DNA from: a virus
Taxonomy: Duplodnaviria > Caudoviricetes
Reading direction: 5' to 3' (one strand)
IMG/VR virus record: IMGVR_UViG_3300028048_003161
Length of the DNA: 64,000 nucleotides
Shown here: positions 10,560-64,000 of the stretch, in pieces
Layout: every line of letters begins with the position of its first letter
Numbering within the stretch: the first letter of the stretch is position 1
Program-made: the position numbers and the translations under genes
Notes under the pieces: model-generated
The model's database searches: none
What the model was told of the DNA's origin: nothing
What the model saw: only the letters and a program-made list of their open reading frames with translations

Positions 10560-12233
10560 GTGGCGATCATATGTAATAATGAGGTAGTGCCTGAAGAAAA
10601 GAATATATTACTTGACAAATGGAAGTTTCCTTCAGTGGATGGAGAGTGTGAACCTGAAAAACCTCCTATGTGCATGTTTTATAATACAGCAAGAGCATTA
10701 CAGTTATTATTTAAGCATATAAAAAATAATAACAAGATAGTTTTAGGAACAGACGTAGACGTTGATGGAATTGGAACAACTTATATATTAAAGAAAGCAC
10801 TCATATATTTAGGTTCTAACAACCATGTGATTTTGATAAATCAGGAGAAAACTCATGGTATACAGGAGAATCAGGTGAGGTTCTTTAATGAGAAATATAA
10901 GGTTGATTTGGTAATCATTACTGATTCAAGTAGTAACGAGTTGGAATTGATAAAAGCACTTAAATGTGATGTATTGGTCATTGACCATCATGATATATTG
11001 CATGAAGAGTATTTTGGTAAATGCAATGATGGAATACATAACTTTGTAATTGTTAACAACAATGTTGATAATTTTCAACAAAGTATTGATATTGAGTGGC
11101 TTAACAAGATTAAACCTGGAGCATTTGATAATATAAGAGAGTACAAAGCAGAACCTGATATGTCTTGTGGTTTGGTAGTATATGAACTTATGAGGGTTTG
11201 TTTTAGGGCAGTAGGTGATGAGCGTACCATTGAAAATTCTCTTTTGTATCAATGGGCTGGTGTGACATTGTTTACTGATGTAATCAATACCTTAAATGAC
11301 AGGAATCAGTATTATTTGAATAAGACAGTGTTTAGTAGAGAAACAGAAAGAGCACTTGGTTCAATACTTAGGGCAATGAATAAATTCAAAGCAACATTGG
11401 ATAAATCATTTATTACATACTCATTAGCACCAATAATAAATAAGGCAATACGTGCTGGAAAGGGTGCAGAAGCAGTTGATATTGTTTTGAATAATCCTGA
11501 TAACATATTGGAACTTAAAAAGTATGCTGAACTACAGGAGATTGCAATTAAGAAAGCAACAACAGTTGAGGTAATAGACAGTGATACTGGGTTAAGGACA
11601 TTAGCACCTAGAGTGTTTACAGGGAAAACAATAGTGATGGATGTAACAAAGATTGGTGTGCATCGTAACTATAATGGAGTAATTGCGGGGCGGTTGTCCG
11701 GAGATACACATAAAGATGCTGCTGTTTACTCTGTTCTTGAGAATGGGATTTGTTCAGGGTCATTCAGAGGAATTTACAAAGACGTGAATTACAGAAAATA
11801 CTTTGCAGATTTTTCAAGTGACATATATGCACAAGGTCATCCTCCTGCATTTGGTTTCAAATGTACAAAAGAGCAGTTGGACGAAATAATGAATACATTG
11901 TATACTATTGAGCCTACAGAGGATCCTAGACCTTGGATTACAGCTGGGAACATTAAACCTGAGGCAAGAGGTATATATCATATAGACAACATGGACGAGT
12001 TTAGGAGGGCAGGATATGTTTGGAGGATAGCAACAGGAAATTCAAAAGTACCATCACAAGATGAAATTAGTATTAGAGTGAGTGCACTTGATGTTACATT
12101 GAGAGAAACAAAAGGAAAATTGTTTATCTATGATGCACTTGGTTTTGAATGTAAAGCATTTAAACCATTGAGTGGCAGTTATTTTGACATTTACCTTGAA
12201 TACACAAATGAAATAACTGCATATATAAGGTAA
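10560..12233 (+). CDS. recJ: RecJ-like DHH-family exonuclease
   Basis: DVDVDG, ITD, IDHH, APIIN..R, GSFRG, GH..AFG motifs of DHH/DHHA1. Confidence 0.8.
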   Translation: MAIICNNEVVPEEKNILLDKWKFPSVDGECEPEKPPMCMFYNTARALQLLFKHIKNNNKIVLGTDVDVDGIGTTYILKKALIYLGSNNHVILINQEKTHGIQENQVRFFNEKYKVDLVIITDSSSNELELIKALKCDVLVIDHHDILHEEYFGKCNDGIHNFVIVNNNVDNFQQSIDIEWLNKIKPGAFDNIREYKAEPDMSCGLVVYELMRVCFRAVGDERTIENSLLYQWAGVTLFTDVINTLNDRNQYYLNKTVFSRETERALGSILRAMNKFKATLDKSFITYSLAPIINKAIRAGKGAEAVDIVLNNPDNILELKKYAELQEIAIKKATTVEVIDSDTGLRTLAPRVFTGKTIVMDVTKIGVHRNYNGVIAGRLSGDTHKDAAVYSVLENGICSGSFRGIYKDVNYRKYFADFSSDIYAQGHPPAFGFKCTKEQLDEIMNTLYTIEPTEDPRPWITAGNIKPEARGIYHIDNMDEFRRAGYVWRIATGNSKVPSQDEISIRVSALDVTLRETKGKLFIYDALGFECKAFKPLSGSYFDIYLEYTNEITAYIR

Positions 12234-12267
12234 AGAAAAGAAGTAGAAAGGAAGGAATTAAAAGGAC

Positions 12268-13113
12268 ATGAAGATTGGAAAGAAAGCACAAAATAAGGAG
12301 TTATCTACAAGACCTGAAAAGAATAACTCCAAGAAGAGTATGGCATTGATCATTGTCATTGCAATAACCGCAGTACTTATTTTATGGGTCTATACCATGG
12401 GTAGAAAAGCAGAAGAGACAGTGGATGTTGTAATGTTATCTGACAATGTTTATAAGAATCAGGTAATTACAGAGAGTGTACTTAAGAAATATCCGATGCT
12501 CAAGGGAGAATTTGAGAAATATGCAACTACTACAGATAGTGGTGAAAAGAAAAGACGTATTTTACTTTGGAGTGAAAAAGATATGATCATTAACTCATTC
12601 GCAGCATATCCATTAAAGTCAGATACAGTTGCAATGTATAATGATTTCATTACTTCTAAAGTAGATAACAGTGATTCAGTATTGTATTCATTCCCTGGTA
12701 AAAACATTGTTTCACTTGATGCAGGTCAGCAGGATTTGGAGTCATTCAAAGCATACCTTCAGCCTGGAGATAGAATCAATGTAACAGCTATTTACAAAAC
12801 AGACGAGGCTGTAAAAGAGGGGGACACAAGTACAACAGTAGAGACATATAAAGAGGAACCTGTGTTTGTAGGAATTATGTTAGCTGACCTATTAAATTCA
12901 CAGGGAGATTCAATTCTTGATCTGTATCAGCAGTATAATGACATGTCAACTTATGAACAGGCAAACTTAGATGCTTCTGAATCATGGATACAGAGCGTTA
13001 CACCTGCAAATATTATGGTAGCATTAACACCTGAAGAAGAGTCAGAGTATTACAAATACTTAAGCAAAGACAGCGTAACATTTAAGATTTCTCTGCCTCA
13101 GAGGTCTAACTAA
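12268..13113 (+). CDS. cpaB: Flp/Tad pilus assembly protein CpaB/RcpC-like
   Basis: N-terminal TM, SAF-like segment, LQPGDRINV and VALTPEE motifs; heads tad operon. Confidence 0.7.
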   Translation: MKIGKKAQNKELSTRPEKNNSKKSMALIIVIAITAVLILWVYTMGRKAEETVDVVMLSDNVYKNQVITESVLKKYPMLKGEFEKYATTTDSGEKKRRILLWSEKDMIINSFAAYPLKSDTVAMYNDFITSKVDNSDSVLYSFPGKNIVSLDAGQQDLESFKAYLQPGDRINVTAIYKTDEAVKEGDTSTTVETYKEEPVFVGIMLADLLNSQGDSILDLYQQYNDMSTYEQANLDASESWIQSVTPANIMVALTPEEESEYYKYLSKDSVTFKISLPQRSN

Positions 13114-13161
13114 TAACAGTTAAAGTTTGAGAAGTTTATGTTTAGAGTTTAGATAGGAGGC

Positions 13162-14085
13162 ATGGAAATGGCATTTGGTTTTTTCAAAGAAAAAGTTAGG
13201 CAGCTTGAAAAAATGGATCCTAACGACACTTCAGGAGTGAATTTAGCAAAGGAAACATCTGATAAAGCAGTTGAGATTATTAAAGAGCTGTCAGGTAGAG
13301 ATATAGACACAAAGGTAAAAGTAATAGACAACTTGATTGTGTTTACTAATGCAGCTGGTGGTGCTGGAGCATCTACAATAGCTACGAATGTAGCATATGA
13401 AGCTATTCAAAAGGGATTGAAAGTTGTGCTTTTAGACTTGAATTTACTTTGTCCTGTACAGCATACATATTTAGGAGTTGAGCAGCAAATGACAAAACCT
13501 GACTTGGTGGGATATTTACTTGGTCAGAACTCATTGAGTGATAGCATTGATACTTCTAATAAGATCAATTTGATTTTTGCAAACAACAGAACAATCAATG
13601 ATTTAATCAATTGTAATGATGCAATTGCAATTGAGAATTACAAAGACATGTTAACAAAGTTGAGGCAGTTTTATGATCTTGTAATTGTTGATTGTCCTAT
13701 GCGAATTGATGATATGCTCTGCAATACAACATTGTATTACGCAGATGCAATCTACATGGTTTGGGATGAGGGTGTTGGTTCTGTAATCAACACAGAGAAA
13801 TTAAGAAGGAACATGGCAGCAACTGGTATTGACAGTTTCACAAAAATGAGAGTCATTTTGAATAAGAGAACATCAATTCATTTTTCTGATTATCCATTGA
13901 CAAAAATGAATATTGAACTTATGGGAGTATTACCTTTCAGTGTTGATATCATTGATAACTCCTTAAGAGAGAGAATCTTCTGTGAAAAGGGTTCAAGTAG
14001 CAATGAGGAATCAAATGAGTTTGCACGTAAAATGATAGGTTTATCAAATAAGATACTTAGTATTGCAGGATATACAGGAAAGTAA
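13162..14085 (+). CDS. cpaE: CpaE/TadZ-like MinD/ParA-family protein with degenerate Walker A
   Basis: AAGGAGASTIA (no Lys), LLDL, YDLVIVDCP, VILNK; directly upstream of TadA. Confidence 0.75.
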   Translation: MEMAFGFFKEKVRQLEKMDPNDTSGVNLAKETSDKAVEIIKELSGRDIDTKVKVIDNLIVFTNAAGGAGASTIATNVAYEAIQKGLKVVLLDLNLLCPVQHTYLGVEQQMTKPDLVGYLLGQNSLSDSIDTSNKINLIFANNRTINDLINCNDAIAIENYKDMLTKLRQFYDLVIVDCPMRIDDMLCNTTLYYADAIYMVWDEGVGSVINTEKLRRNMAATGIDSFTKMRVILNKRTSIHFSDYPLTKMNIELMGVLPFSVDIIDNSLRERIFCEKGSSSNEESNEFARKMIGLSNKILSIAGYTGK

Positions 14086-34682: not shown

Positions 34683-34742
34683 AGAGATTAACATAGAATA
34701 ATTAAGTGGTTTAGCAAATAGAAATTAGTGGAGGACATAAAA

Positions 34743-36059
34743 ATGGCAGAGTTAAACGTTGAAGATAAGATGGTGCGTACAACAGTTAAGCTTAGATTAA
34801 AGATTAGTTCATTCTATTCTGCAATCTACAGTTCACTTAGTCATAACGAAAGTGACATGGTTGAGAAAATGGAGTTCTGTGGTAAAAATATGTATTACAA
34901 TCCTAAATATATTGAGGCACTTGAATCTGATGAGGTTACATTTGAGGCAATGCATTTAGCAGTTCATATTGGTTTATTGCACGTAGTCAGACTTGCAAGA
35001 AAGAAGCAAACACGTAAGTCTGTAAACTACAAACTGTTTAATATCGCATGTGATCTTATTGCGAATTCCTTACTCTATGAGGAATTTGGGGTTGGACCTG
35101 AAAGACCTGTAACATACATTAAGATGCCTAAGGGCGAGTTCTTCTGTTCTACAGTAAGTGTTGATACAGACACTGTAGAGGACTTATATGAGTATATGTT
35201 GTCACAAATGGACAATGATAAGGACTTTATTACTGTTAGAGGTAAAAAGCAACTTTCTGATTATGACAATATGCAGAATTATGCTGAACTTAAGATTGAT
35301 AAAAAAGACATTGAAAATTATACACCTGACATCAATACTACAGAGATGTCTGATGGAGTTGCAGATGCAGACGCTGTTGAGAGACAGTCACGACAGATGT
35401 TAAATGCAGCTTACATGAAGAGTAAGATGATGGGCGATGGTGCTCAGGCAGGAGTTGGTGGAGTTGGTTTAGCACGAGAAGTTGGTAAGATCATGTCAAG
35501 TCATATGGATTGGCGTAAGTATCTTAAGAGATTCTGTATCAAAATGAAAGAATCAGAGGCTTCATTTGCTACACCTGACAAAAGAATGTATTACCAGAGT
35601 TTAATCTATCCTGGACATAGTAAGAAATTAAGTAATGAGATTGACAACGTTAAGATTTGTTTTGATACCAGTGGTTCTATTTCAGAGGACGATCTGGGAA
35701 GATTTCTTGGACAGGTACTAAAGCTGACTACACAGTATAAAGTAGATGCTGATCTTATTTGTTGGGATGGGGATGTTGAGTCAGTAACAAACCTTAACAA
35801 GAAATCAACATTGAAAAACAATAAGATGTACGGTGGTGGAGGTACGGATCCTTCATGTATCTTTAGATACTTCGACTCACCTGCTTGTAAGCGTAAACCT
35901 TATGTGACAATCATCTTCACAGATGGTTATATCCTTGAAGAAGGACTGAATAACCCTTCTTGGGGTCGTAAGTACAAGGATACACTTTGGGTATTAACAA
36001 AAGATTACAATAGAGATTTTCGACCTCCATTTGGAAAAGTGACAGAGGTTGAGCAGTAG
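34743..36059 (+). CDS. DUF2201-like metallopeptidase-vWA protein (HExxH altered to HLAVH)
   Basis: YNP..., HLAVH...H..R, NIACD...N, DW...L, vWA DTSGS, GGGTD, IFTDG. Confidence 0.8.
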   Translation: MAELNVEDKMVRTTVKLRLKISSFYSAIYSSLSHNESDMVEKMEFCGKNMYYNPKYIEALESDEVTFEAMHLAVHIGLLHVVRLARKKQTRKSVNYKLFNIACDLIANSLLYEEFGVGPERPVTYIKMPKGEFFCSTVSVDTDTVEDLYEYMLSQMDNDKDFITVRGKKQLSDYDNMQNYAELKIDKKDIENYTPDINTTEMSDGVADADAVERQSRQMLNAAYMKSKMMGDGAQAGVGGVGLAREVGKIMSSHMDWRKYLKRFCIKMKESEASFATPDKRMYYQSLIYPGHSKKLSNEIDNVKICFDTSGSISEDDLGRFLGQVLKLTTQYKVDADLICWDGDVESVTNLNKKSTLKNNKMYGGGGTDPSCIFRYFDSPACKRKPYVTIIFTDGYILEEGLNNPSWGRKYKDTLWVLTKDYNRDFRPPFGKVTEVEQ

Positions 36060-46476: not shown

Positions 46477-46485
46477 TAACATTGA

Positions 46486-46517
46486 AATGTCTCACAGACC
46501 TGTTGTGAGACATTTTT
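46486..46517 (+). terminator. rho-independent terminator
   Basis: aaatgtctcaca...tgtgagacattttt. Confidence 0.8.
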
Positions 46518-46577
46518 ATATTGTAAGTATATTTAATAAATAATTTGTTTAATATAAGAAAGCGAGGATTTTTAATT

Positions 46578-47726
46578 ATGGCAAACTTAAGCATTCCAGC
46601 AGTTAGTGTAGGACAGTTCAATCAGATCGTGGAGCAGCAGATCAGAGAAGAGAACTACAGACCTATTATTGGTTTAGGCAAGGGTGGTATTGGTAAGTCT
46701 GAATCACTGGGAGACCTGGCAAAGAGACTTGGTATTGGATATATTGACTTAAGACTTCTGTTATATACAGAGACAGACTTAAAGGGTATTCCTTATCCTA
46801 GCGTTGATCATAAGAAAACAGTCTGGCTGACAAATGATATTTTACCTCAGTTTGATGCAGAGCATCCTGAAAACAGCAGAGATCCTGAAAGAGGAATTCT
46901 TGTACTTGATGAAGTTACATCAGCAAGTAAGAGTGTAAGAACAGCAGCTTATCAGCTCCTGCAGGAAAGAAAGTTAAATGACTATGTACTTCCTGAGAAA
47001 TGGCTTGTAGTATGTATTGGAAATGGTGAGGACGATGGCGGTGAGTACAATGGTATCGAGCCTAACTTTGCTAACAGGTGCTCTGTTTATGAGGTAGTTG
47101 CAAAGTTTGATGAGTGGAAAACATGGGCGGTTGCACATGGGGTAAATCCTATGGTCATTGCTTATCTGAATACTAACAATCAGGATTTTCACAACTTCAA
47201 CCCTGATTCTGATACAGACCTTGTGTTTGCATCGCCTCGTTCATGGAAGGCAGTAAGCGACATTCTGAATATGAATGAGTTCAATCCTGAAAATGAAGTG
47301 TTACTTGCAAGAATGGAAGCTAACGTAGGTAGTGGTCCAGTTGTAGCATTTAAAACTTTCATGGAGTACAAAAATCAGATGCTGAATACAGATGCTATTT
47401 TGGCAGGAGATTTTCCTGAGGTTGATAACATTCCTAATGAGGTTCTGTACATTACCTTAACAAACTTAAGCAGTAAGATGGCAGAGATTTTTGAGAGATG
47501 CCAGAAGAAGGGTGGCTTTGATGATGTGGCTCTGCATCAGGTAGGAAATGCAGTACGTTGGGTACTTGATCCTGATAGACCTAAGGAGTTCAGTGCTATG
47601 GCAGTAAATGACCTTATCAGATCAAATAAGGATGCATTTACAAGTTTATTAGGAAGTCAGCAGTTTAAGAATATCTGTCCTGAACTTAGTAACTTTGCAT
47701 GTACTAACAGAAACATCTACAGATAA
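46578..47726 (+). CDS. MoxR/AAA_5-like ATPase (usual partner of DUF2201-vWA proteins)
   Basis: GKGGIGKS, DL.G.PYP, LVLDE, GN, ANR, SPRSW. Confidence 0.88.
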   Translation: MANLSIPAVSVGQFNQIVEQQIREENYRPIIGLGKGGIGKSESLGDLAKRLGIGYIDLRLLLYTETDLKGIPYPSVDHKKTVWLTNDILPQFDAEHPENSRDPERGILVLDEVTSASKSVRTAAYQLLQERKLNDYVLPEKWLVVCIGNGEDDGGEYNGIEPNFANRCSVYEVVAKFDEWKTWAVAHGVNPMVIAYLNTNNQDFHNFNPDSDTDLVFASPRSWKAVSDILNMNEFNPENEVLLARMEANVGSGPVVAFKTFMEYKNQMLNTDAILAGDFPEVDNIPNEVLYITLTNLSSKMAEIFERCQKKGGFDDVALHQVGNAVRWVLDPDRPKEFSAMAVNDLIRSNKDAFTSLLGSQQFKNICPELSNFACTNRNIYR

Positions 47727-47743
47727 GATCAACAGGTGAGAGC

Positions 47744-48721
47744 ATGAGACTTAGGGTTCATAGCAGTAAGAAAGTAAAAACTACAGAGAAACAAAAGAAG
47801 ATCAACAGTGAGAAAAAGGCTAAAGGGCCTAAGATTTCTAAGAACTACAGGGATATTTCAATCCCTGTGGCATCTGGAAATGGAGAGGTCAAGGCTGATT
47901 TAACACAGCTAACATATGGAATGATTGATAACTGCGACTTGATTTCTGTTTATACAGAGGATGGAACAGTTGAACTTACAGGAAGTTGGATTGAACTTAT
48001 TATTTCAATGATGGACACTATAATTAGTGATAATCCTGATAAGTTTAGAGAGATCTTCATGGAAAACGAAGTAACAAGTCCAGAAATGAATGTAGACAGC
48101 ACTTATGGAAAGTACACATTTGACTCAAGAGAGCAGTACAAAGTTTATAGTATCTACAACTCGGGTTATTATTTAGAAGCAATATTTAATAATTCGAATA
48201 TCTTTTCAGCAATTGTAGGTCTCACTAAGGCTTTGAGGATACCACTTAATTTAATTAAGTTCAACATGGTATTAAAGGGAGCAGATTTGAGTAAACTTGG
48301 TACTGACATTATTGAAGATAATAGCAGACAGGTGGATGTAGATGATATAAACATTGTTGCTAGAAATGGTGTATTTTTGAGAAAGGTATCAATACTTGGT
48401 ATTGTTGTTGATGTTCGTAGGTTAGATGTTGCACTCCTTATTGTTTTGAAAATAATCAGTAAGGTTTATGGAGATACATTATTTGATGATTTGCAGACAG
48501 TAGGAAATACAGGAATATGCAAGGAAAGTGATTGTATTGAGGATAAATATGAAAAGATAGACAATACAGATTATGTGGTTTATACAGATGGAAACGTGAA
48601 TGACATAACCGATATGCTCATACAGATAAGAAATGCACTGGCACTAGACAGTGACCTGTTTAATTTCACAATAAGGACACTTAAGAAAAAGAGTGAACTT
48701 AAGGAATATGAAGTAGACTAA
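47744..48721 (+). CDS. hypothetical protein with two internal repeats, possibly SeqA C-terminal-like
   Basis: IYNSGYYLEA...I...I..L and IDNTDYVVYT...I...L..I repeats. Confidence 0.5.
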   Translation: MRLRVHSSKKVKTTEKQKKINSEKKAKGPKISKNYRDISIPVASGNGEVKADLTQLTYGMIDNCDLISVYTEDGTVELTGSWIELIISMMDTIISDNPDKFREIFMENEVTSPEMNVDSTYGKYTFDSREQYKVYSIYNSGYYLEAIFNNSNIFSAIVGLTKALRIPLNLIKFNMVLKGADLSKLGTDIIEDNSRQVDVDDINIVARNGVFLRKVSILGIVVDVRRLDVALLIVLKIISKVYGDTLFDDLQTVGNTGICKESDCIEDKYEKIDNTDYVVYTDGNVNDITDMLIQIRNALALDSDLFNFTIRTLKKKSELKEYEVD

Positions 48722-48760
48722 AGAGAGGCAGTTAGAAAGAAGAGGAGGCATTGATAGAAA

Positions 48761-50362
48761 ATGTATAAGATCAATTCAAAAGTTGACAAGCCTGACATTG
48801 GTAACATGTCCATTACAATTGATAAGATGATGCGTCGTGGAGTAAGAATCAACATTAACAAATGTCAGAATCTTCGTGACTATTATCTGAACTTGATGAA
48901 TGTGTTAAAAGAGGACTTTGCTACAAAATATGGTGTATCAAATCCTAATAGTAGTAATCAGTTGGTTGCTTATTTGAGCAGTAAGGCAGATGAGGTAAGC
49001 CTTGGTGTCAAGAATGACATTCTGAATATATGTTATGACGGCGAGACAGGTAAGTGGACAACTAACAAGGAGGCAATGCATAAGTTGTCAGACTTGGGGT
49101 ATGCTTTCGCTCAGGATTTATTGGATTACAGGGCAGCTAAAAAATATGCAGAGACACTTAATATGTTGTGTGCATTCTCTGATGAAGGTGGTTTAGTGCA
49201 TCCTAGAATCACATTGGGCAAGACAAATAGAGTAAACTACTCTGATCCTGCACTTATGACAATTCCAAAGACATTGTTATGGGATGTAATTACATCTTAT
49301 GAGGATGGAAATACATTGTACAGTGTTGATATCAAGAATCAGGAGCCTAGCATTCTGATTAACCTGACAGGGGCAGAGGAGTTATATTATGCATTGGAAA
49401 GTCCTGATGGACTTTATGAAACAATGTTTAAGCAGTGTTTCAGTCCAACTACGAAAGCAACAATTCTGGTAGATACATTGCCTGAAAATAGAGTATACAG
49501 TATTGAAGAGTTGAGAAAGCTTGGAACAGTTTCACCTGCAACATATTCAGCAATTAGACCTAATTGTGAGAATATGACAATCAATGGTAAAAAGATTGAT
49601 GCAATTGAGGTTGTTTGTGCAGGCAGTGAGAAAGGTTTAAGACCTGTATTACCTGATACAGTGAAAGTAATTCTTGAGGACAGTGAGGTTTGTGATGTAC
49701 CTGTAACTTGGGAGAGCTGTGACAAGAAGTATAAGAAGAGTGCAGACTATGCACTTGTTGGACACCTTGGTGGGGTTGATATGACAGTATCAAAGGCTGA
49801 ACGCAATGAGTTTAAGACAGCATACTTAGCATTGTCTTACGGGGCATCTAAATTTGGAATTAAGAAAATTTGTAAAATTATTGATGGCGCTAGAGTGTAT
49901 GATTACATTACAAAAATTGAGGCGATCAAGAAGTACAGGAGCATGATTACTAAGTACAGTAAAGAAGGAAATACTTGCATTGGTACAACATTTGGTACAA
50001 TGCTGGATGTTGGTGAGATTGATAATGAGAGAGCAAAGATTAGAACAATGCTGGACTTACCTATTCAGGGTACAGGCGCTGATATTTTAAGCCTACTCAT
50101 TAAGAGGTTTGAAACATACACTCAGGAGCATGGACTTGCAGAGTATATGAGTTTATACTTCACTAGACATGATGAGTTAGTCATTGAGGTTAAGAAAGAG
50201 TATTGTGATAAGACATCAGAGGATGAAATCAGTAACATCTTAACAGATATGATTGCATATCAGATTGATGATTGGGTACCTGCAAAAGTAGAGGTTAAGA
50301 AGCTGAATAACAATGAGAGCATTGATGTTCAGAGAGGATTTGCATCTGAAGATGAGGACTAA
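48761..50362 (+). CDS. family A DNA polymerase, polymerase domain only, with ~115-aa insertion
   Basis: NPNS..QL, KTNR, motif A DIKNQEP, motif B RNEFKTAYLALSYG, IQGTGAD, motif C HDEL. Confidence 0.88.
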   Translation: MYKINSKVDKPDIGNMSITIDKMMRRGVRININKCQNLRDYYLNLMNVLKEDFATKYGVSNPNSSNQLVAYLSSKADEVSLGVKNDILNICYDGETGKWTTNKEAMHKLSDLGYAFAQDLLDYRAAKKYAETLNMLCAFSDEGGLVHPRITLGKTNRVNYSDPALMTIPKTLLWDVITSYEDGNTLYSVDIKNQEPSILINLTGAEELYYALESPDGLYETMFKQCFSPTTKATILVDTLPENRVYSIEELRKLGTVSPATYSAIRPNCENMTINGKKIDAIEVVCAGSEKGLRPVLPDTVKVILEDSEVCDVPVTWESCDKKYKKSADYALVGHLGGVDMTVSKAERNEFKTAYLALSYGASKFGIKKICKIIDGARVYDYITKIEAIKKYRSMITKYSKEGNTCIGTTFGTMLDVGEIDNERAKIRTMLDLPIQGTGADILSLLIKRFETYTQEHGLAEYMSLYFTRHDELVIEVKKEYCDKTSEDEISNILTDMIAYQIDDWVPAKVEVKKLNNNESIDVQRGFASEDED

Positions 50363-50560: not shown

Positions 50561-52204
50561 ATGAAAGAGCATGGGATAAAGAAAGGAACAGCATTAGTAA
50601 TTAGTCTTGGGCTTATGATTGTAATGGTAATTAGCAGTTTAGCAGGATGCAGTACACTCAAGAATGAGATGTTAGACGCAATGAATAAGAAAGAGAACAT
50701 TCACATGTCTGTTGCTAACGTTGGAGAGGACAAGGACACAGAAGATGTGCAGTGGATTGAATTAGATCAGCTTACAAGTTATCCAGATATCAGAAATAAG
50801 TTTGATGATGCATTCAATACAACAAGATTTGACAAGAGTTCAAAGAATGGTTGCATTTATGTTGATACAGATGGTAACTGGTGTGGAAACAGCACATTAT
50901 ATAATGCTTTTATGAACAAGGTATTTGTTGAAGATCATTGGAAAGATAGCAATAATCAACATGAGATTGCAGAGGTTGCTAAGAAAGAATTCAGTGATAT
51001 CAATAGTGATTACACAGGATTTATGGCAGCAACAAATGTTTATTTTAACTTGATGCCTGTGAATGAAGATGGTACATCAGGAATGAATAACAACATCAGT
51101 AGAAAAGTTGCAATGTCAGTGTTATATAAAGCTGATAACAGTGTAATGTTAAAAGATACAGATAGCAAGTTTAGTGAAGCAGTTGGAAATAGGGCAGAGG
51201 CAGTTGAAAATAGCGCAGAGGCAGTTGGAAATAATGAGAGTGGTACAGAGATTGCAGAGAATGGCACAGAAAAAGAGGTAGATGCAGTAGAAAGTACAGA
51301 GAGTGTCATAGAAAGTAATGTGAATGATGTAGGAGTAAATGAATATGACAATACAGCACAAGAGAGTGAGCAGTATTGTTATTTGCAGACAGATGATGGT
51401 TCATTAAATAGCATTACTTATAATGAGACAATGTCAAAAGCTGAATTGATATATGCATTGGTTAATAAATATTACAGTGATGAATTAAAGAATTACAGTG
51501 GAAATGAGGAATTTACAGATTGTAAAAATGCAGGTAACTTAATTGATAAGTTAGGTTTCAGTGGTAAATATGGTTGTAAGTCATTTACTTTAGAATATGC
51601 ATTACAAAATAAAGACAGTGGACTTCCTAGTGATATGTTTAATGCAATGTGTATTGCAAAGGAACATGGGATTGTTGATGAAGAGACAGGTTGGAATGAG
51701 GGTGTTACAGGAGAGTACTTGATTGACAAGATTACAAAGACATATATGAGTTTATGTGAAAAGAAGTATTTAGTCAGTGCAAACGCTGGAGCAAACACAG
51801 GAGTTAATCTGATAGACAAGGAACTTGAGGAAGAGAAAAAGAAAGATCCAGAGGAACTTGGAGCAGTAACAGTTAAGAAAGAGAGTGATATTGATACAAT
51901 TGATGGACTGCTTGATAAGTATGGAGATGAAATTGATGTTTCTGACAAGGAACTTGAGGAGGATAAGAAAGCAGCTAAGGGTGTAGACCTTGATAGTGTT
52001 GATAAGTACATGTGGGTTGATAATTGTTACTATTTGAATATTAGAGTAGGTCCTGGAACAGAGTACAGAATAGTTAAGTCAGTACCTAAAGGAACAAAGG
52101 TACACGTGGTTGGCAAATGTAAAGACAGTGATTGGTATAGAATGATCTGTGATGGAAAGATTTGTTATCAGTATGGAATTTACCTGTCAAACAAGAAAAG
52201 TTGA
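50561..52204 (+). CDS. surface lipoprotein with degenerate SLH-like repeats and C-terminal SH3b; paralog of 58271-59962
   Basis: LAGC lipobox; ISRK.A / MSKAELIY; LNIRVGPGTEY....V.KGTKV.V....DWY SH3b. Confidence 0.75.
   Translation: MKEHGIKKGTALVISLGLMIVMVISSLAGCSTLKNEMLDAMNKKENIHMSVANVGEDKDTEDVQWIELDQLTSYPDIRNKFDDAFNTTRFDKSSKNGCIYVDTDGNWCGNSTLYNAFMNKVFVEDHWKDSNNQHEIAEVAKKEFSDINSDYTGFMAATNVYFNLMPVNEDGTSGMNNNISRKVAMSVLYKADNSVMLKDTDSKFSEAVGNRAEAVENSAEAVGNNESGTEIAENGTEKEVDAVESTESVIESNVNDVGVNEYDNTAQESEQYCYLQTDDGSLNSITYNETMSKAELIYALVNKYYSDELKNYSGNEEFTDCKNAGNLIDKLGFSGKYGCKSFTLEYALQNKDSGLPSDMFNAMCIAKEHGIVDEETGWNEGVTGEYLIDKITKTYMSLCEKKYLVSANAGANTGVNLIDKELEEEKKKDPEELGAVTVKKESDIDTIDGLLDKYGDEIDVSDKELEEDKKAAKGVDLDSVDKYMWVDNCYYLNIRVGPGTEYRIVKSVPKGTKVHVVGKCKDSDWYRMICDGKICYQYGIYLSNKKS
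51176..51235 (+). repeat. 21-bp in-frame tandem repeat (EAVGNRA/EAVENSA/EAVGNNE)
   Basis: ga(a/g)gcagttg(g/a)aaata three times at 21-bp period. Confidence 0.8.
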
Positions 52205-53984: not shown

Positions 53985-54026
53985 AAAGAAGGATAAGCAG
54001 TGTATAAACTTTGTTTAGTCATGCAG

Positions 54027-54055
54027 TTGTAAAAATAGGTATTTTGTGGTATAAT
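54027..54055 (+). promoter_or_regulatory. sigmaA-type promoter
   Basis: TTGTAA-17 bp (aaataggtattttgtgg)-TATAAT. Confidence 0.7.
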
Positions 54056-54082
54056 ATAGATAGGAAAGCAGGAGGGTATACT

Positions 54083-54520
54083 ATGTTAAAGATATACTTT
54101 GGAGAAATGAAAAATACAGTGTATGATACATCACTGTACTTTGATAATGTTTATGAGGACAGCTGGCTGACCTCCGATATATCTAAGAAAATGATAAAAG
54201 ACATTGATAAATCAGACGTTCTTGGATCAAACTGCATTCAAAGTCCTGTGCTTGGGCAGATAGCACCTTCTATATTATCAGGTGGTGTAAAAACTCTAAT
54301 CTTAATGGAGTATGACGACAGCTTTGTTTATAATGCATCTATGTGCGGAGATAATTGTGCTAAATGGATTTTAGACATTGCAAAACATAAGGATTTAACA
54401 ATTAATCTGTTTCATACAATGGATTTTGGAGATGGACCATTTGAAATAGAGATATTGAACACTGGAAGAGTAGTTCATAGCAGAAGTGAGTACTTAGATG
54501 AGGCATTCAAGTATGTGTAG
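54083..54520 (+). CDS. DUF4869-family protein
   Basis: MLKIYFG, YFDN.Y...W, MIKDIDKS, SPVLG.I....LSGGVKTLIL, NAS.CGDNCA.W. Confidence 0.8.
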   Translation: MLKIYFGEMKNTVYDTSLYFDNVYEDSWLTSDISKKMIKDIDKSDVLGSNCIQSPVLGQIAPSILSGGVKTLILMEYDDSFVYNASMCGDNCAKWILDIAKHKDLTINLFHTMDFGDGPFEIEILNTGRVVHSRSEYLDEAFKYV

Positions 54521-54532
54521 GAGGTCATAACA

Positions 54533-55030
54533 TTGAAAGGTGAGTACACTATAGAGGTTTGGAATAAGAAAGTTAGGTATGCACTAAGAATTAGAAGAAA
54601 CATTACAGTTATTACAGGAGACAGTGGTACAGGAAAAACAACACTGGTAAAAATGATAGATGCATATGATAATAATGGTATAAGCAGTGGTGTACATTTG
54701 AAATGTGATGTTAGGTGTACTACTTTGCATGGAAAAAATTGGAGAGATACATTAGATAAGATTAGCAACTCAATTGTGTTTATAGATGAGCAGAGTCATT
54801 TCATAACAACAAAAGAATTTGCAGTTGCAATACAGGGTACAGACAATTACTATGTATTGATTACCCGTAACAATTTAGAAGCACTTCCGTATAGTATACA
54901 TGAAATATATGGGTTAAGAGCATATAGCAATAAGGAAACACAAAATGATATGTTTCAGACATTTAATGAGCAGTATGAATTATATGGTGCTAATATTACA
55001 CAGTCAGGCATACAGTCATTAGTGGGGTAA
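54533..55030 (+). CDS. small P-loop ATPase, DUF4869 partner
   Basis: RNITVITGDSGTGKTT, IVFIDE, VLITR, LPYSI.EIY. Confidence 0.75.
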   Translation: MKGEYTIEVWNKKVRYALRIRRNITVITGDSGTGKTTLVKMIDAYDNNGISSGVHLKCDVRCTTLHGKNWRDTLDKISNSIVFIDEQSHFITTKEFAVAIQGTDNYYVLITRNNLEALPYSIHEIYGLRAYSNKETQNDMFQTFNEQYELYGANITQSGIQSLVG

Positions 55031-55035
55031 GACAT

Positions 55036-55842
55036 ATGAAATTAGTAGATTTAACTCACCTTAATTGGACAACTACACATAATGGTGGAGTGTCATATGG
55101 GTGTTATTATAAAGCAACAGAAATTAAAAATGGCAAGAAGTATTATTACAAATGCTCTAATTTCTATTCAAACAACAAGTATTTTGGTGATGAGTCAGCT
55201 AATGAGGTTATTTGTAGCAGGTTATTAAGAATACTTGGCTTTGATTGTGTAAAATACACATTAGTATATGCACTGGTTAAAATAAAGGGAAATGTTTATA
55301 GGACATATGTGTGTAAGTCAGAAAATTTCTTTGTGAGATATGATTCACGTATGACATTGGAGGATATGCATGATTTACATGACAATTTAAGTGTAGATGC
55401 TTTGGTAGCAAGACTTGGCATACAGAGAGCAGTTAAGCATATGATAATTGCTGACTTCATTACACTCCAGAGGGATAGACATGGTGGAAATATAGAGTTG
55501 CTGTGTAAAAACAATAAATGGACAATGAGTCATTTATTTGACAATGGATTAGGGTTACTAGCACCTTTTCCTAGTAAATCAGGTATGAGCATTGAAGCAT
55601 ATGATATATTGGCAGATATACCTGTTAATAACTATATAGGCACTAGAAGTTTGTATCAAAATTTGAGATATATTGATAGACCTATAAAAATTACTAGACT
55701 TACAAAGGCAGATAAGTCAAGGATATTTTATGGATTGCATGATGCATTACCAAAAGAGTATATAGACAAGATATGGAAGTTGATAACATATAGGTATATG
55801 TTTTTGAGGCAGCGAGGTTTTATAGATGATCAGAAAGTTTAA
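55036..55842 (+). CDS. HipA/CtkA-like Ser/Thr kinase toxin
   Basis: G...K, Y.K, E.I.S.L..ILG, D......DRHGGN, FDNG. Confidence 0.8.
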   Translation: MKLVDLTHLNWTTTHNGGVSYGCYYKATEIKNGKKYYYKCSNFYSNNKYFGDESANEVICSRLLRILGFDCVKYTLVYALVKIKGNVYRTYVCKSENFFVRYDSRMTLEDMHDLHDNLSVDALVARLGIQRAVKHMIIADFITLQRDRHGGNIELLCKNNKWTMSHLFDNGLGLLAPFPSKSGMSIEAYDILADIPVNNYIGTRSLYQNLRYIDRPIKITRLTKADKSRIFYGLHDALPKEYIDKIWKLITYRYMFLRQRGFIDDQKV

Positions 55843-58088: not shown

Positions 58089-58270
58089 ATACACAAGATA
58101 TAAGTTTAATTACATATTTCAAATAAAGTATGCACACTCTAATTAAAGGGTGTGTTATTTTTATGTATAAAAATGGGTATGATTGGAAATAATGTCTAGG
58201 TAGGAGGCACTATATTGAAATTATAGTGTTTTAATTTTATATTAAAATAATACAAATGGAGGTAAAAGGC

Positions 58271-59962
58271 ATGTCAGGTAAATTTATGAATGTGAAGCGT
58301 ATTGTAATACCTGTAATGACACTAGTAATTATTGCTAGTCAATTGTGTACCGTTTCAGCAGCAACTAGAAATGAGATGGCTAGTATGTTGGGAAATAGTC
58401 AGCAGGTAGAAATTGAGGTGGCAATGCCATCTGAACAGTCTTCACTGAAAGGACAGAGTATAGGGAACGAAGGAGAAATGGATTGGGTACCTTTAGCAGA
58501 GGTAGTAGGACATGATGATATAAGAAACAGCATTGAGAATCACTTTGGTATTAAGAGCAAACAGGGTTCTCTTTATACGAACATCAAAGGTAAGAATGAT
58601 TACAATAATGTGTTTAGTGTTGCAATGAACAACAGCGCAGTCGAGAAAGCCCTGAACACGAATAAGAATTTCATAGCAAATGCAGCCTGCAACAGCTATA
58701 CCGATCTGGATATAGACGATGAGGAAAAGTGTGTGAACATGGCATTGAATGCATACTTCAATCTGTTGCCTGATGGTACAGAGGCAAATGCAGATGCATC
58801 ATTGACAAGGGCACAGTTCATGGCTATGGTCATGAGGGCAGATACCCCTGTGACAGAGATTAAGACAGACACTGCATTTGAGAAATCAGTTGGACAGTCA
58901 GAGTATAACAAGTATGCGCAGAGTGTGAACAAGGACAGCTATCTTACTTTGAATAACCAGTTGTACAATAGCAGTATGACACGGGCAGAAGCTGTTTATA
59001 CCATAGTAAGTAGATATTATGCAGACAGCTTAAAAAATGCAAGCAGTTCAGCAAGTTGTTATACAGATGCAAAGGATGGTGGAGCTGTAGCGAAATCAGA
59101 TCGTGCATCAGCCTTGAATAACAGTATTTCAAATCCAGACAGTGGGATGGACAGGGAGCTCTATAAGAGTTTATGTGTTGCAAAGGAAAAGAATCTGCTG
59201 ACAAGTGCAAGGAGCAGGTGGGATGAAGCGATCACTAAGAATGAAGCGATTGCATTGTTAAGATCAGTTTATACCCATAAGTTAGTAGAGTGTAATGCGA
59301 AAGGTACACTTCTAACCTCATCCTCAACATCAACAAATGAAACCACAACAGTTAAAAAAGCCACAGCAACAAAGAAAAAATATATCACAGTAAAGAAATA
59401 TAAAAAGAGCAAGAAATTGTATGTGAAGGTAAGTTCAGCGAAAGCATATAAGAATCCTGACACTACAAAGGGAAAGCTGGTAGTTACAAAGAAGTATAAG
59501 AAAGCTACAAAGTTAACAGTTACAGGTACAACAAAATACAAAGGAAAGTCATATTATGTTGTGAAATCAGGTAAAAATGTTTATTTAGTACAGCAGAGTT
59601 TATTAAGCAAGACCAAACCAAAGACAGCAAAGCCAAGCAGCAACAAGCCTTCAACAAAACCGAGCAGCAACAGCAGCAGTAGCAAACCGAGCAATACAGA
59701 TAGTGGTAATAGTACGGCTACTTTTGATCCTAATGGAGGTTGGGATGATTTTATCAGATGCAAAATGCCTGGAGTAAAACCTCATCATGGAGACAAATGC
59801 GTTGGTTATAAAATGGTCAATGGTAAAAAGAAGAACATCTATTATAATAAAAAAGATAATCACTGCTATTACATTGATGTAAATGGAACAGAGAGTATAG
59901 TAATGCATAAGGATGCATTTAAGTACATTGATCTCGATGATGATGGACCTGATTTTAAGTAA
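58271..59962 (+). CDS. secreted surface protein with SLH-like repeats and SH3-like C-terminal region; paralog of 50561-52204
   Basis: Sec signal ending VSA; LTRAQFMAMV, MTRAEAVYTIV, ITKNEAIALL; Lys-rich beta region; Ser/Pro linker. Confidence 0.75.
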   Translation: MSGKFMNVKRIVIPVMTLVIIASQLCTVSAATRNEMASMLGNSQQVEIEVAMPSEQSSLKGQSIGNEGEMDWVPLAEVVGHDDIRNSIENHFGIKSKQGSLYTNIKGKNDYNNVFSVAMNNSAVEKALNTNKNFIANAACNSYTDLDIDDEEKCVNMALNAYFNLLPDGTEANADASLTRAQFMAMVMRADTPVTEIKTDTAFEKSVGQSEYNKYAQSVNKDSYLTLNNQLYNSSMTRAEAVYTIVSRYYADSLKNASSSASCYTDAKDGGAVAKSDRASALNNSISNPDSGMDRELYKSLCVAKEKNLLTSARSRWDEAITKNEAIALLRSVYTHKLVECNAKGTLLTSSSTSTNETTTVKKATATKKKYITVKKYKKSKKLYVKVSSAKAYKNPDTTKGKLVVTKKYKKATKLTVTGTTKYKGKSYYVVKSGKNVYLVQQSLLSKTKPKTAKPSSNKPSTKPSSNSSSSKPSNTDSGNSTATFDPNGGWDDFIRCKMPGVKPHHGDKCVGYKMVNGKKKNIYYNKKDNHCYYIDVNGTESIVMHKDAFKYIDLDDDGPDFK

Positions 59963-61682: not shown

Positions 61683-62094
61683 ATCAAGGGGCTTTAATAT
61701 ACAGTTGCAGTTACGAAGTAGTAAAACCATTGTTTGTGGAGACAGTGCTACAGGAAAAACATTTCTTTTTGAATTGTTGATGAACGCAGCAAGGGACATA
61801 GATAACCTGTACTTTATAAATTATGCTTCAGTTAAAAGTAAGGCAAATTGTAAAGTTGTAATAGAGCACATTAAACAGGCTTATGGGCAGTACATTATTA
61901 TGGATCAGGCAGATGATGTGCAAGAGGTTGACGATAGGATCATGAAGGCAATCAATGAAAATCTAAAGAATACTTATATAATTATAGGTAGAGCACCTAA
62001 ACTAAACTATTGCTTTACTGATGTGGCAGAGGTCAGCATAAAGAATAATCTAATCACATTAGAATATTTAGAACCACCTGTATTGGAGGTGTAG
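61660..62094 (+). CDS. small P-loop ATPase, DUF4869 partner
   Basis: TIVCGDSATGKT, YIIMDQAD, IIIGR. Confidence 0.7.
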   Translation: MGQTLACKSRGFNIQLQLRSSKTIVCGDSATGKTFLFELLMNAARDIDNLYFINYASVKSKANCKVVIEHIKQAYGQYIIMDQADDVQEVDDRIMKAINENLKNTYIIIGRAPKLNYCFTDVAEVSIKNNLITLEYLEPPVLEV

Positions 62095-62124
62095 GCATGG
62101 TTTATGTTTATATGGAGGATAAAA

Positions 62125-62352
62125 ATGGGAGATAATAGTAGGTTTGAGTCACAGAGTAGTACAATTATTAAGCGTCTTATGGAAAAGGATGGCATGAGTA
62201 GAGAAGAAGCAACAAATTTTTGGTTCCATTCAGCTACTTATAAAGAAATTATAAAAAGAAAATTAACATACATTTCAGCAATGAGAGCCTATTCAGAATT
62301 GAGGTTGGAACATAAAAAAAGTCCAGATTGGATGCAGAAATCTTTTGAATAA
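62125..62352 (+). CDS. DUF3791-like small helical protein
   Basis: LME..GMS.EEA...W..S.TY..I; GGAGG RBS. Confidence 0.5.
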   Translation: MGDNSRFESQSSTIIKRLMEKDGMSREEATNFWFHSATYKEIIKRKLTYISAMRAYSELRLEHKKSPDWMQKSFE

Positions 62353-62369
62353 TCACTATTGAACTAACA

Positions 62370-62402
62370 GAGCACACCGATAAAAAGGTGTGCTTTTATT
62401 TT
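62370..62402 (+). terminator. rho-independent terminator
   Basis: agagcacacc...ggtgtgcttttatttt. Confidence 0.75.
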
Positions 62403-62537
62403 ATACACTAAAATGTTTAATCACCATATCTCAATCAATTCAATACATTTAATAAAAATAATAAACATCTATAATTTTCAATGCTGCATAAAAAGCTACA
62501 TTTCCATATAGTAAGTATAATTTTTATTTTTTAATTA

Positions 62538-64000
62538 GTGTCTGCTGATTAAGCAGATATCTGTAGTTTCCAACTCTTACATCTGCTCCGGTCATGCCAA
62601 AATCGGAACAGATGAAAAAGAGCACAAAGTATTCGCCTCTGAATCCTGAACAGATTCGTCACGAATACAGATAATGCGATAGATGTCAACTGCGTTTCTT
62701 CCAGTTTTGTGGTAATGCAGCTCATACCATAGCAGCGTTTGCTCAAGCTGAAGGTGCGCTCCACTTCGATTCTATCGGTATTATCCTGATACTCTTGTTT
62801 TTTGAAGGCTTTTGCTGTGGCACTTGGTCTGCCCAGCTTTGGACCTGATAACCGGATCCCATGCTCCTTGCAATAACTCCTGTTTTCCCTGGTCCGGTAT
62901 ATCTGATCTGCCAGGACACGTTCCGGATAATAACCGGTACGTTCTTTGAAGCGTTCTACCGCTTCAATCAGGCAGCCACTCTCGTTGTATGCCTCGAAAG
63001 ATATTTTTTCGATACGCCCATAACCTTCGCTGTCAAGACTGAGATCAAATTTTGCGCCAAATTCAACAGGTGCTTTGACCTTACCTCTGACAATCGGTCG
63101 AAGCCATGGCTGCGAAATGCTTACAATGCGATGTTCCACAGAATGGACTCTGTTATCATACATATACTGTTGCTGTTCATGCAGCCTGATGATGGTAAGA
63201 TACAAGTCGATATCCTTACCTGTCATGGCGTATCCATCACTCATGAACTGTTCCAGATAGCCGAGGTCTCTTTTCACGTAGCCAAGTTGTCTGCGGATTG
63301 CGCTGCGGATTTTCTTTGCCGTGTGCTTTCTGCTCTTGGCAAATGCAAGGTACTCTTTTCTGGCACGTTTGCGGTATCTTCTTGGCAGCTTAAGACCATA
63401 ACATTTACAAAAACGGTAAATCATGTTTTCCAGCTTTTCTCTTGCTTCGTTCAAAAGCGAGAGGTCCTGCGGATAACGGATGTTTGCAGGTGCGCAGGTT
63501 GCATCAAGGGTCAGCGTTCCTTTGTTTGTATCTTCTTTTGCAGTACCATCATCACCGGATTTTCCTCCGGATGGAGGAGTATGGTCATCTTTGTCATCAT
63601 CCTTGTGAGCAAGAAGATACTCGTTTACTTCCATCAGCATATCTGCTGAAATGCGTTTACGGAAAAGAACCAGTGTACTTGCATCAAACGGGGCTTCTTC
63701 CCGAAAACCGGGAAGCCCGATAAAGTATTGCAGATACGGATTCTCTGCAATCTGTTCTACAAGCTCACGGTCGGAAAACTGGAACTTGGTCTGGATGATC
63801 AGGGCTCCTAACGCCATGCGAAGAGGCTTGGCAACATTACCCGTATCACTTGGAAACAGCTTGGCATATTTTGCTTCAAATTCATCCCATGGGATGCGGT
63901 CAGCCAGTTTGATCCAACGGTTATCCGGATTCATATGGAGCCCCATAGGCTGGTTGAAATCGAGGAATGAATGCTGTAGCTTGTCGATCGGTTTGTACAT
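62538..64000 (-). mobile_element. IS5-family insertion sequence (other end lies beyond the window)
   Basis: sharp rise in GC and CpG at ~62540; putative terminal IR gtgtctgctgattaa overlapping the transposase stop; single DDE ORF. Confidence 0.85.
62549..64000 (-). CDS. IS5-family DDE transposase
   Basis: SDRELVEQI.ENPY.QYF.G, FD.STLV.FRKR, LDAT, RPIVRGK....EFG.K, AD.IY, R..VE..F...KR. Confidence 0.93.
   Translation of the reverse strand: MYKPIDKLQHSFLDFNQPMGLHMNPDNRWIKLADRIPWDEFEAKYAKLFPSDTGNVAKPLRMALGALIIQTKFQFSDRELVEQIAENPYLQYFIGLPGFREEAPFDASTLVLFRKRISADMLMEVNEYLLAHKDDDKDDHTPPSGGKSGDDGTAKEDTNKGTLTLDATCAPANIRYPQDLSLLNEAREKLENMIYRFCKCYGLKLPRRYRKRARKEYLAFAKSRKHTAKKIRSAIRRQLGYVKRDLGYLEQFMSDGYAMTGKDIDLYLTIIRLHEQQQYMYDNRVHSVEHRIVSISQPWLRPIVRGKVKAPVEFGAKFDLSLDSEGYGRIEKISFEAYNESGCLIEAVERFKERTGYYPERVLADQIYRTRENRSYCKEHGIRLSGPKLGRPSATAKAFKKQEYQDNTDRIEVERTFSLSKRCYGMSCITTKLEETQLTSIALSVFVTNLFRIQRRILCALFHLFRFWHDRSRCKSWKLQISA

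Follow-up and report, generated by a model that had tools for sequence, protein, structure and literature searches.

The stretch of DNA analysed here (the window; 64,000 nucleotides of IMG/VR virus record IMGVR_UViG_3300028048_003161, Duplodnaviria, Caudoviricetes) contains a gene for a DNA polymerase of family A (PolA) that carries, within its fingers, an additional domain of the bacterial immunoglobulin-like (Ig-like) type Big_4. As judged from its sequence and a structural model, the protein is a catalytically intact family A DNA polymerase that has been cut down to thumb, palm and fingers. A first-pass annotation, made from the sequence alone, had proposed that a family A polymerase without exonuclease domains had co-opted an Ig fold in its fingers, and the profile, structural and phylogenetic evidence presented below bears this out. 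Elements of gut Lachnospiraceae harbour many relatives of this gene, which together make up a large and uncharacterised subfamily of PolA. Coordinates of the main features are collected in Table 1.

The Pfam family DNA_pol_A (PF00476) matches the open reading frame (ORF) in two stretches (E 7.6e-28, 98 bits against a cutoff of 34.3). Motifs A, B and C are intact, as had been noted at the outset, with D190, E195, R348, K352, Y360, D471 and E472 all present; motif A reads SVD190IKNQE195P. In a family alignment of 105 sequences, 74 insert-bearing and 31 insert-less, seven residues are invariant (R157, D190, E195, K352, Y360, Q436 and D471); R157 and Q436 correspond by motif alignment to Klenow R668 and Q849, and both are thus kept. 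An AlphaFold2 model of the polymerase, built on this family alignment, has a pLDDT of 95.4 and a pTM of 0.91. Its residues 6–518 superpose on residues 521–926 of the Klenow fragment (VIA-align; Z 29.7, root-mean-square deviation 3.2 Å, 371 residues), and after Klenow the closest structures are Pol θ, Pol ν and T7 polymerase (Z 27–29), together with apicoplast polymerases. The superposition covers Klenow 521–926 only, both exonuclease domains being missing. On this model the protein is the polymerase domain alone, with its N-terminus at the exonuclease/polymerase boundary. The first-pass annotation was right that the 3'-5' and 5'-3' exonuclease domains are absent, and its placing of the start at the thumb needs only a small correction, to the first palm segment, which precedes the thumb. 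The Pol I equivalog models of NCBIfam (TIGR00593 and NF004397) align with the C-terminal ~170 residues only and give 44.5 and 73.5 bits, below their cutoffs of 600 and 720. No obvious signal peptide was seen by eye at the N-terminus.

Between the fingers helices N and O the polymerase has an extra module of 118 residues (about 115 in the original estimate, which placed them between motifs A and B). In the model, helix N spans residues 218–226 and helix O, which carries motif B, residues 345–359, and the insert between them is mostly β-strand. Pol I has about 10–12 residues at this site: in a phmmer search of PDB sequences, residues 97–227 and 348–479 of the query align with 281–418 and 430–566 of 6vdc_A, the large fragment of a mycobacterial Pol I, with ~120 query residues facing ~12 there. 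In Pol I, the N-O loop forms the tip of the part of the fingers that closes over each incoming nucleotide. Two other explanations of the extra residues were considered and rejected. An ordinary fingers region misread as an insert does not agree with the 6–12 residues found at the site in Pol I and in the 31 insert-less relatives. An intein or homing element, already disfavoured in the first-pass annotation for want of intein ends, does not agree with the β-sandwich fold, with the absence of any intein-related Pfam match at E up to 1, or with the termini (SPTT...VSKAE), which have no intein residues.

The C-terminal ~70 residues of the insert, by profile matches and predicted fold, are a true Big_4 domain, as had been proposed. 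PF07532 matches the whole protein at residues 292–338 (E 2.8e-7, 30.4 bits against a gathering cutoff of 22.1) and matches the excised insert somewhat better (E 3.2e-8, 33.4 bits). By phmmer, the insert matches three Big_4 repeats of a beta-galactosidase of solved structure, 8q2h (whole-sequence E 5.4e-8), and, in a library of 1.84 billion proteins, proteins built of up to 17 Big_4 repeats (E down to 7e-27); the matches to such repeat proteins start at residues 255–296, varying by protein. When modelled alone (residues 226–347; pLDDT 93, pTM 0.81), the insert folds as the expected Ig-like sandwich: its C-terminal ~65 residues superpose on residues 852–917 of 8q2h_A with 1.9 Å over 65 residues (25% identity, Z 5.4), and Bifidobacterium BbgIII (7nit_A) is matched with Z 6.2, both Z values being modest because the Big_4 domain is small. 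Most VIA-align matches begin at residue 50/51 of the 122-residue insert model, and the top match, 7nit_A, spans residues 17–114. Foldseek with the insert alone returned nothing at E ≤ 0.001; 7nit_F had a probability of 0.97 but an E of 0.23, and rows for Pif1 and GFP were noise (TM about 0.2). The first ~48 residues of the insert are packed with the Big_4 part in the models and predicted with equal confidence, and this 48-residue connector may bring the ends of the Ig domain together to fit a loop.

The Big_4 repeats of the Bacillus circulans beta-galactosidase (8q2h) and of Bifidobacterium bifidum BbgIII (7nit) thus share sequence and fold with residues ~276–340 of the polymerase. In contrast to these secreted repeats, the domain here is present as a single copy, is nested in a polymerase loop rather than arranged in tandem, and has the additional 48-residue connector. 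The insert is slightly acidic (mean net charge -2.4 +/- 2.2), with few conserved basic positions (R244, R266, K278 and K326); DNA binding, or direct clamping of DNA, by the insert is therefore unlikely, and binding of a protein is favoured.

The insert is a stable property of a sizeable family. More than 300 homologues of ~525 residues (41–98% identity) carry both PF07532 and PF00476, most of them with a precomputed PF07532 match, and the insert recurs in 74 or more diverse homologues, the most distant of which share 29% identity. The first-pass annotation had asked whether homologues share the insert, and these counts provide the answer. The site shows a clean split, with 113–148 residues in 74 sequences and 6–9 in 31, and in nearly all insert-bearing sequences the insert measures 113–126 residues. 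At least 91% of sequences keep its residues P298, V315, W317 and G334, and mean column identity is 0.46 for the insert, 0.58 for the polymerase core and 0.47 for the connector. The insert-less relatives, of 380–430 residues, match residues 1–228 and 344–517 as two stretches in the search of 1.84 billion proteins, which yielded ~750 family members.

The metagenomic contigs that carry homologues with the insert reach 720 kb. The few homologues that bear names are annotated "Ig-like domain-containing protein" and come from metagenome-assembled genomes (MAGs) of Lachnospiraceae. A scan of GTDB species representatives gave three loci, all in Lachnospiraceae MAGs (water deer cecum, mouse gut), and a scan of JGI metagenomes gave only three close relatives, which are insert-less. 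Among phage (50,697) and plasmid (72,556) records, tblastn found distant PolAs only (25–30% identity), none with the insert, and identity with a known phage or plasmid polymerase was rejected on this ground. Some of the distant alignments begin at query residues 254–267; these are low-scoring extensions, because a hidden Markov model (HMM) specific for the insert found no match in 77 distant PolA loci.

In a tree built without the insert columns and rooted on Pol I, the polymerase family is monophyletic (100% support). The lineages that branch off first lack the insert, and the sequences that carry it sit deeper inside the family. The insert would therefore have been gained, probably once, within a family of minimal polymerases of ~400 residues. 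A single gain is compatible with a site-heterogeneous model, and the tree shows possible secondary losses.

The residue equivalent to Klenow F762 (position B3) is L356, in agreement with the first-pass annotation, which had taken this leucine as a sign of a probably low-fidelity or repair-type polymerase. That part of the annotation is not supported. Pol I has F at B3, whereas this family has L, N or I throughout, insert-less members included, and never F or Y in the 105-sequence alignment. Several PolA subfamilies are known to have Leu at B3, and two bacterial subfamilies among them, APEX and CHEAP, have been shown to be active (PMC10201439). Because the whole family has L, N or I at B3, and because the Leu-bearing APEX and CHEAP are active, Leu at this position is no evidence of low fidelity or of a repair role; E195 is moreover invariant. 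There is no proofreading domain. As the residues that check sugar and base pair are intact, the protein is expected to polymerise dNTPs on a template in the ordinary way rather than as a specialised error-prone enzyme.

One gene was found to accompany the insert. Homologues of protein Y, the product of the gene preceding that of the polymerase, are encoded just upstream of the insert-bearing polymerase in all eight independent loci compared (the window and the loci of relatives designated L001, L002, L006, L007, L010, L012 and L096), and in none of nine insert-less loci (L003, L008, L009, L013, L014, L015, L093, L094 and L095). Absence was assessed over 2–10 kb upstream by BLAST and by a Y-specific HMM run with all filters off, and, for the ORFs just upstream in two of the loci, by hhalign (<1% probability). 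Remote homology of Y to the small ORFs upstream of insert-less polymerases was examined and rejected (hhalign probability <1%, HMM E above 0.2). In L010 the stop codon of Y and the start codon of the polymerase share a base, and in L096 the gene order is X-Y-PolA, compared to X-PolA in insert-less loci, X being a further conserved protein described below. Within the 17 loci compared, no gene other than Y was seen to co-vary with the insert.

The Y proteins of the loci compared share 21–48% identity and vary in length from 210 to 330 residues, with short (~210) and long (~320) forms among relatives. Y has a lysine-rich N-terminal tail (14 K/R within the first 37 residues) followed by a conserved core of ~125 residues, and long forms have in addition a variable C-terminal half. 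Profile searches gave no match of Y in Pfam, PHROG, NCBIfam or PDB, and no OB-fold signal could be detected in its sequence. The ESM Atlas model of Y is poor (pTM 0.44), and its structural neighbours, GmrSD_C domains, are too weak to use (TM 0.35–0.43). For the function of the insert, the first-pass annotation had offered processivity or partner binding. Of these two, partner binding is the better supported, given the distribution of Y (8/8 against 0/9) and an acidic insert that argues against DNA clamping.

We propose that the element encodes this polymerase for gap filling or replication and that Y docks on its Ig insert, a proposal in which we place slightly less than even confidence. The Ig domain on the mobile fingers would serve as a docking platform for Y, which is encoded just upstream, probably in the same operon, and would have arrived in the family together with the insert. 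The strongly basic N-terminal tail of Y would hold DNA, and Y would thereby act as an accessory subunit that improves the processivity or the template handling of a minimal polymerase that has no clamp. The element could need such a complex when gaps are filled, in the maturation of lagging strands or early in leading-strand synthesis. Several observations weigh against this proposal. Under the site-heterogeneous model, well-supported branches require a single change of insert state, so that the co-occurrence of Y and insert amounts to one independent pair there; the best tree has four pairs, all concordant, which is too few for significance, and the co-occurrence may reflect one ancestral event. 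Another small ORF separates Y and PolA in L001 and L002. The DNA-binding role suggested for Y comes from its composition, Y having no recognisable fold or family, and it is gene linkage only that points to a role in maturation or replication. Finally, a clamp-loader-like gene lies near one relative (L010), which bears on the question of the element's own replicative polymerase. A more far-reaching form of the proposal, which we consider rather unlikely, is that the Big_4 insert and Y constitute an undescribed type of holoenzyme, with the subunit recruited via an Ig domain on the fingers instead of via thumb or N-terminus; this would turn a PolA of ~400 residues into a processive replicase or primase-polymerase of giant Lachnospiraceae extrachromosomal elements.

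Alternatively, the insert could bind a partner other than Y, such as X, a helicase or clamp of the element, a host replication protein, or a tether to membrane or wall, with Y as a mere neighbour. Protein binding is a general function of Ig-like domains, the link of X to the polymerase is family-wide, and both the clamp-loader-like gene near a relative and the possibly single origin of the Y-insert link would fit such a partner. However, X and the flap nuclease described below are equally present with insert-less polymerases, which leaves the gain of the insert unexplained, and the absence of any other co-varying gene in the 17 loci also counts against this alternative, so that we consider it unlikely.

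The insert could also have a direct effect of its own, on nucleic acid or on catalytic cycling: as a lid or wedge it might guide the 5' template overhang, part the downstream duplex in strand displacement, or slow or gate the closing of the fingers. Its location, on the N-O loop of a segment that moves upon nucleotide binding, would suit such a role, and functional insertions in fingers or thumb are found in other PolA subfamilies, namely the thioredoxin-binding domain of T7, those of plant organellar polymerases, and the SPO2-like β-expansion (PMC10201439, PMC7699545). The net negative charge of the insert and the scarcity of conserved basic positions make direct action a still less probable explanation. 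The Big_4 fold, moreover, is not known to have a nucleic-acid role.

The closest functional analogues of the insert-bearing polymerase are the PolA-SSB primases (CcPol-MP, SCCmec). These are PolAs of Bacillota mobile elements whose exonuclease regions are partly or wholly truncated, and which depend on a small protein encoded by an adjacent gene. This OB-fold SSB binds the N-terminal exonuclease remnant or the tip of the thumb, the docking surface having evolved anew in different lineages, and the gene is followed by a helicase and a serine recombinase (Bebel et al. 2020, PMC7581432; Rice 2023, PMC10061031). Priming by these enzymes is said to be made possible by a shortened helix of the thumb. 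In the present family, by contrast, the exonuclease region has been removed cleanly at the domain boundary, the candidate dock is the Ig domain on the fingers, Y as candidate partner exceeds those SSBs in size and shows no sequence relationship to them, and there is no adjacent helicase. One might suppose that the polymerase and Y are likewise a primase-polymerase, in which Y binds single-stranded DNA and the pair starts chains de novo. An exonuclease-less PolA on a Bacillota mobile element with an adjacent small partner gene, the basic tail of Y, and the documented variability of docking in PolA-SSB pairs (PMC7581432, PMC10061031) are in line with this. The size of Y (210–330 residues) and its lack of an OB-fold signal by sequence are not, and downstream in the operon no helicase or site-specific recombinase of the PolA-SSB type is found, but an SH3_3 protein and proteins without assignment; in addition, insert-less relatives have no Y, which argues that priming is not the general mode of the family. 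We therefore consider priming improbable. Equally improbable is that the insert is a tolerated passenger from an Ig-repeat surface-protein gene, without function and kept since its removal destabilises the fingers: the elements are rich in Big_2, Big_4 and LRR surface proteins as possible donors, insert-less relatives keep all catalytic residues (so that the insert is not needed for catalysis) and secondary losses are possible, but insert length and core residues are conserved across lineages of 29–60% identity, the confidently predicted connector is conserved too, and a linked gene appears along with the insert.

With Pol I (Klenow, Bst, KlenTaq) the polymerase shares the fold of the whole polymerase domain (Z 29.7 to 1kfs, 22% identity), the residues of motifs A, B and C, the steric-gate Glu, and the equivalents of R668 and Q849; it differs in being without exonuclease domains and in having an Ig module of 118 residues in the N-O loop. 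Insertions in other PolAs are of a different kind. The thioredoxin-binding domain of T7 gp5, the AID of Pol γ and the phiKMV-like insertion comprise 50–100 residues, are located in the thumb, and bind, or are thought to bind, a processivity partner or DNA (PMC10201439). These thumb insertions are not autonomous, recognisable domains, whereas the present insert is a complete Pfam domain of extracellular proteins, located on the fingers; the fingers insertions of plant organellar polymerases are likewise no recognisable Pfam domains. A reclassification of PolA in 2023 distinguished 19 subfamilies, including thumb insertions, a UDG fusion and β-expansions of the fingers (PMC10201439), and nothing resembling an autonomous Ig-type domain in the N-O loop was found in it. 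A full-text search of the literature found no paper that places a Big_4 or Ig-like domain in a family A polymerase. With the split T7-like PolAs (S-SBP1-like; Czernecki et al. 2023) the present gene has in common that it encodes a polymerase domain only. In S-SBP1-like phages the 3'-5' exonuclease is encoded by an adjacent gene, via frameshift fission, whereas none was detected here in 64 kb; the minimal form of the present family is ancient and family-wide, and the neighbours of the polymerase are Y and the SH3_3 protein.

Table 1. Features of the polymerase and of genes linked to it (positions in the window; aa, amino acid residues)
Feature	Position	Strand	Basis
Family A DNA polymerase with Big_4 insert, polymerase domain only, 533 aa	48761..50362	+	ORF, Pfam, AlphaFold2 model, Klenow superposition
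Motif A (aa 185-199), with catalytic D190 and steric-gate E195	49313..49357	+	Both invariant in 105-sequence alignment
Whole insert (aa 228-345), 118 residues, between fingers helices N and O	49442..49795	+	Alignment, secondary structure of models
N-terminal part of insert (aa 228-275): strand 230-237, helix 248-254	49442..49585	+	Models, pLDDT >90; without a separate fold match
Big_4 Ig-like domain proper (aa 276-340; Pfam match aa 292-338)	49586..49780	+	Pfam PF07532, 8q2h, 7nit_A
Motif B / helix O (aa 345-361): R348, K352, L356, Y360, G361	49793..49843	+	K352 and Y360 invariant; R348 and G361 at least 90%
Motif C (aa 466-473): H470-D471-E472	50156..50179	+	D471 invariant, E472 at least 90%
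Protein Y, 325 aa, candidate partner of insert	47744..48721	+	Homologues upstream of insert-bearing PolA
MoxR-like AAA ATPase, leading gene of the probable operon that includes Y and PolA	46545..47726	+	phrog_1297, E 3.3e-69; syntenic in L001, L002
Standalone 5'-3' exonuclease / flap endonuclease, 309 aa	30452..31381	+	Pfam 5_3_exonuc_N, 60 bits against cutoff 34.3
Protein X, 324 aa	31555..32529	+	Conserved neighbour of flap nuclease and PolA; homologues in L003, L009, L012, L013-15, L093, L096

The gene context suggests that the MoxR-like ATPase, Y and the polymerase probably form one operon. A terminator-like hairpin is present at 46484–46516 and none from 46545 to 50362, and a GGAGG sequence lies 11 nucleotides before the ATG of the polymerase. 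Unlike in Pol I, the flap nuclease is encoded by a separate gene, located 17 kb from the polymerase gene in the window, and it would supply in trans the Pol I domain that the polymerase is without. A crude tblastn search of the 64-kb window with the N-terminal regions of eleven Pol I proteins matched this flap nuclease only (30.5–31.2 kb) and no 3'-5' exonuclease homologue, although a very divergent one could escape such a search. The order flap nuclease - X - PolA was found in L009, L012, L013-15 and L093, within 2–6 kb and irrespective of the insert, and homologues of X are encoded directly upstream of insert-less polymerases; X itself has no match in Pfam, PDB or ESM Atlas. The family amounts to a Pol I whose parts are encoded by separate genes and for which no proofreading exonuclease was detected.

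The polymerase gene lies on a large, one-strand-coded mobile element from a Lachnospiraceae bacterium of gut or rumen. The genes of the window share one strand, its GC skew is strong and tRNAs are absent. Its gene content (partition, pilus, Tat and radical SAM genes together with many orphan genes) and the size of related contigs (450–720 kb) agree with a giant extrachromosomal element. The only clear break in one-strand coding is a transposase-like ORF on the minus strand (62549–64000), and at 62001–64000 the composition shifts abruptly (GC 0.41 and skew ~0, compared to 0.31–0.40 and strongly positive skew elsewhere). In a term search, a megaplasmid preprint (PMC12934698) showed no link to the Big_4-insert polymerase.

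Several other genes of the window and of related loci could be assigned. A DUF2201 protein (metallopeptidase-like and VWA-like; 34728–36059) is encoded 10 kb from the MoxR-like ATPase; both genes recur upstream of the polymerase in L001 and L002, and the two proteins may form a MoxR-VWA chaperone pair. Large proteins encoded at 50561–52204 and 58256–59962 match the same SH3_3 proteins of L001 and L002 and are probably paralogues. The first of them has a membrane- or lipoprotein-like N-terminal start, a C-terminal SH3_3 domain and a weak match to an amidase PHROG, and in L001 its SH3_3 homologue is the next gene after the polymerase, while in L002 the distance is ~2 kb. The region 54011–55842 encodes in succession a DUF4869 protein, a small P-loop ATPase and a weakly HipA_C-like protein, and may be a defence or toxin-antitoxin cassette. 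In L096, too, a HipA_C-like gene follows the polymerase, beside AbiEii.

On the pig-gut contig L010, the clamp-loader-like gene (DNA_pol3_delta2/AAA, 482 residues; 11926–13374) lies 6 kb downstream of the insert-bearing polymerase, and some of these elements may therefore carry further replisome parts. In L008 (6075–9720), from a mouse-gut Lachnospiraceae MAG, the insert-less relative is found beside LRR/Big_2 surface proteins, a resolvase, an integrase and a SprT-like gene. These elements carry many genes for Ig-repeat surface proteins, from which the insert could plausibly have come.

Few enzymes have been studied and engineered as much as the family A polymerases. The present family offers a natural pair of exonuclease-free polymerases with a core of ~400 residues, with and without the insert, and thereby a clean structure-function comparison. 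If the N-O loop does tolerate insertion of a whole domain, this would be useful for polymerase engineering. New in this analysis are the link of the family to a standalone flap nuclease and to X, and the presence of Y along with the insert. A module of extracellular adhesion proteins or glycosidases appears to have been recruited into a DNA replication enzyme, and, if Y docks on the moving fingers, this would represent a new coupling of an accessory factor to the nucleotide-addition cycle. Besides the conserved X, the replication module of these giant elements, which are abundant in gut and rumen Lachnospiraceae but uncharacterised, provides in Y a candidate new accessory protein.

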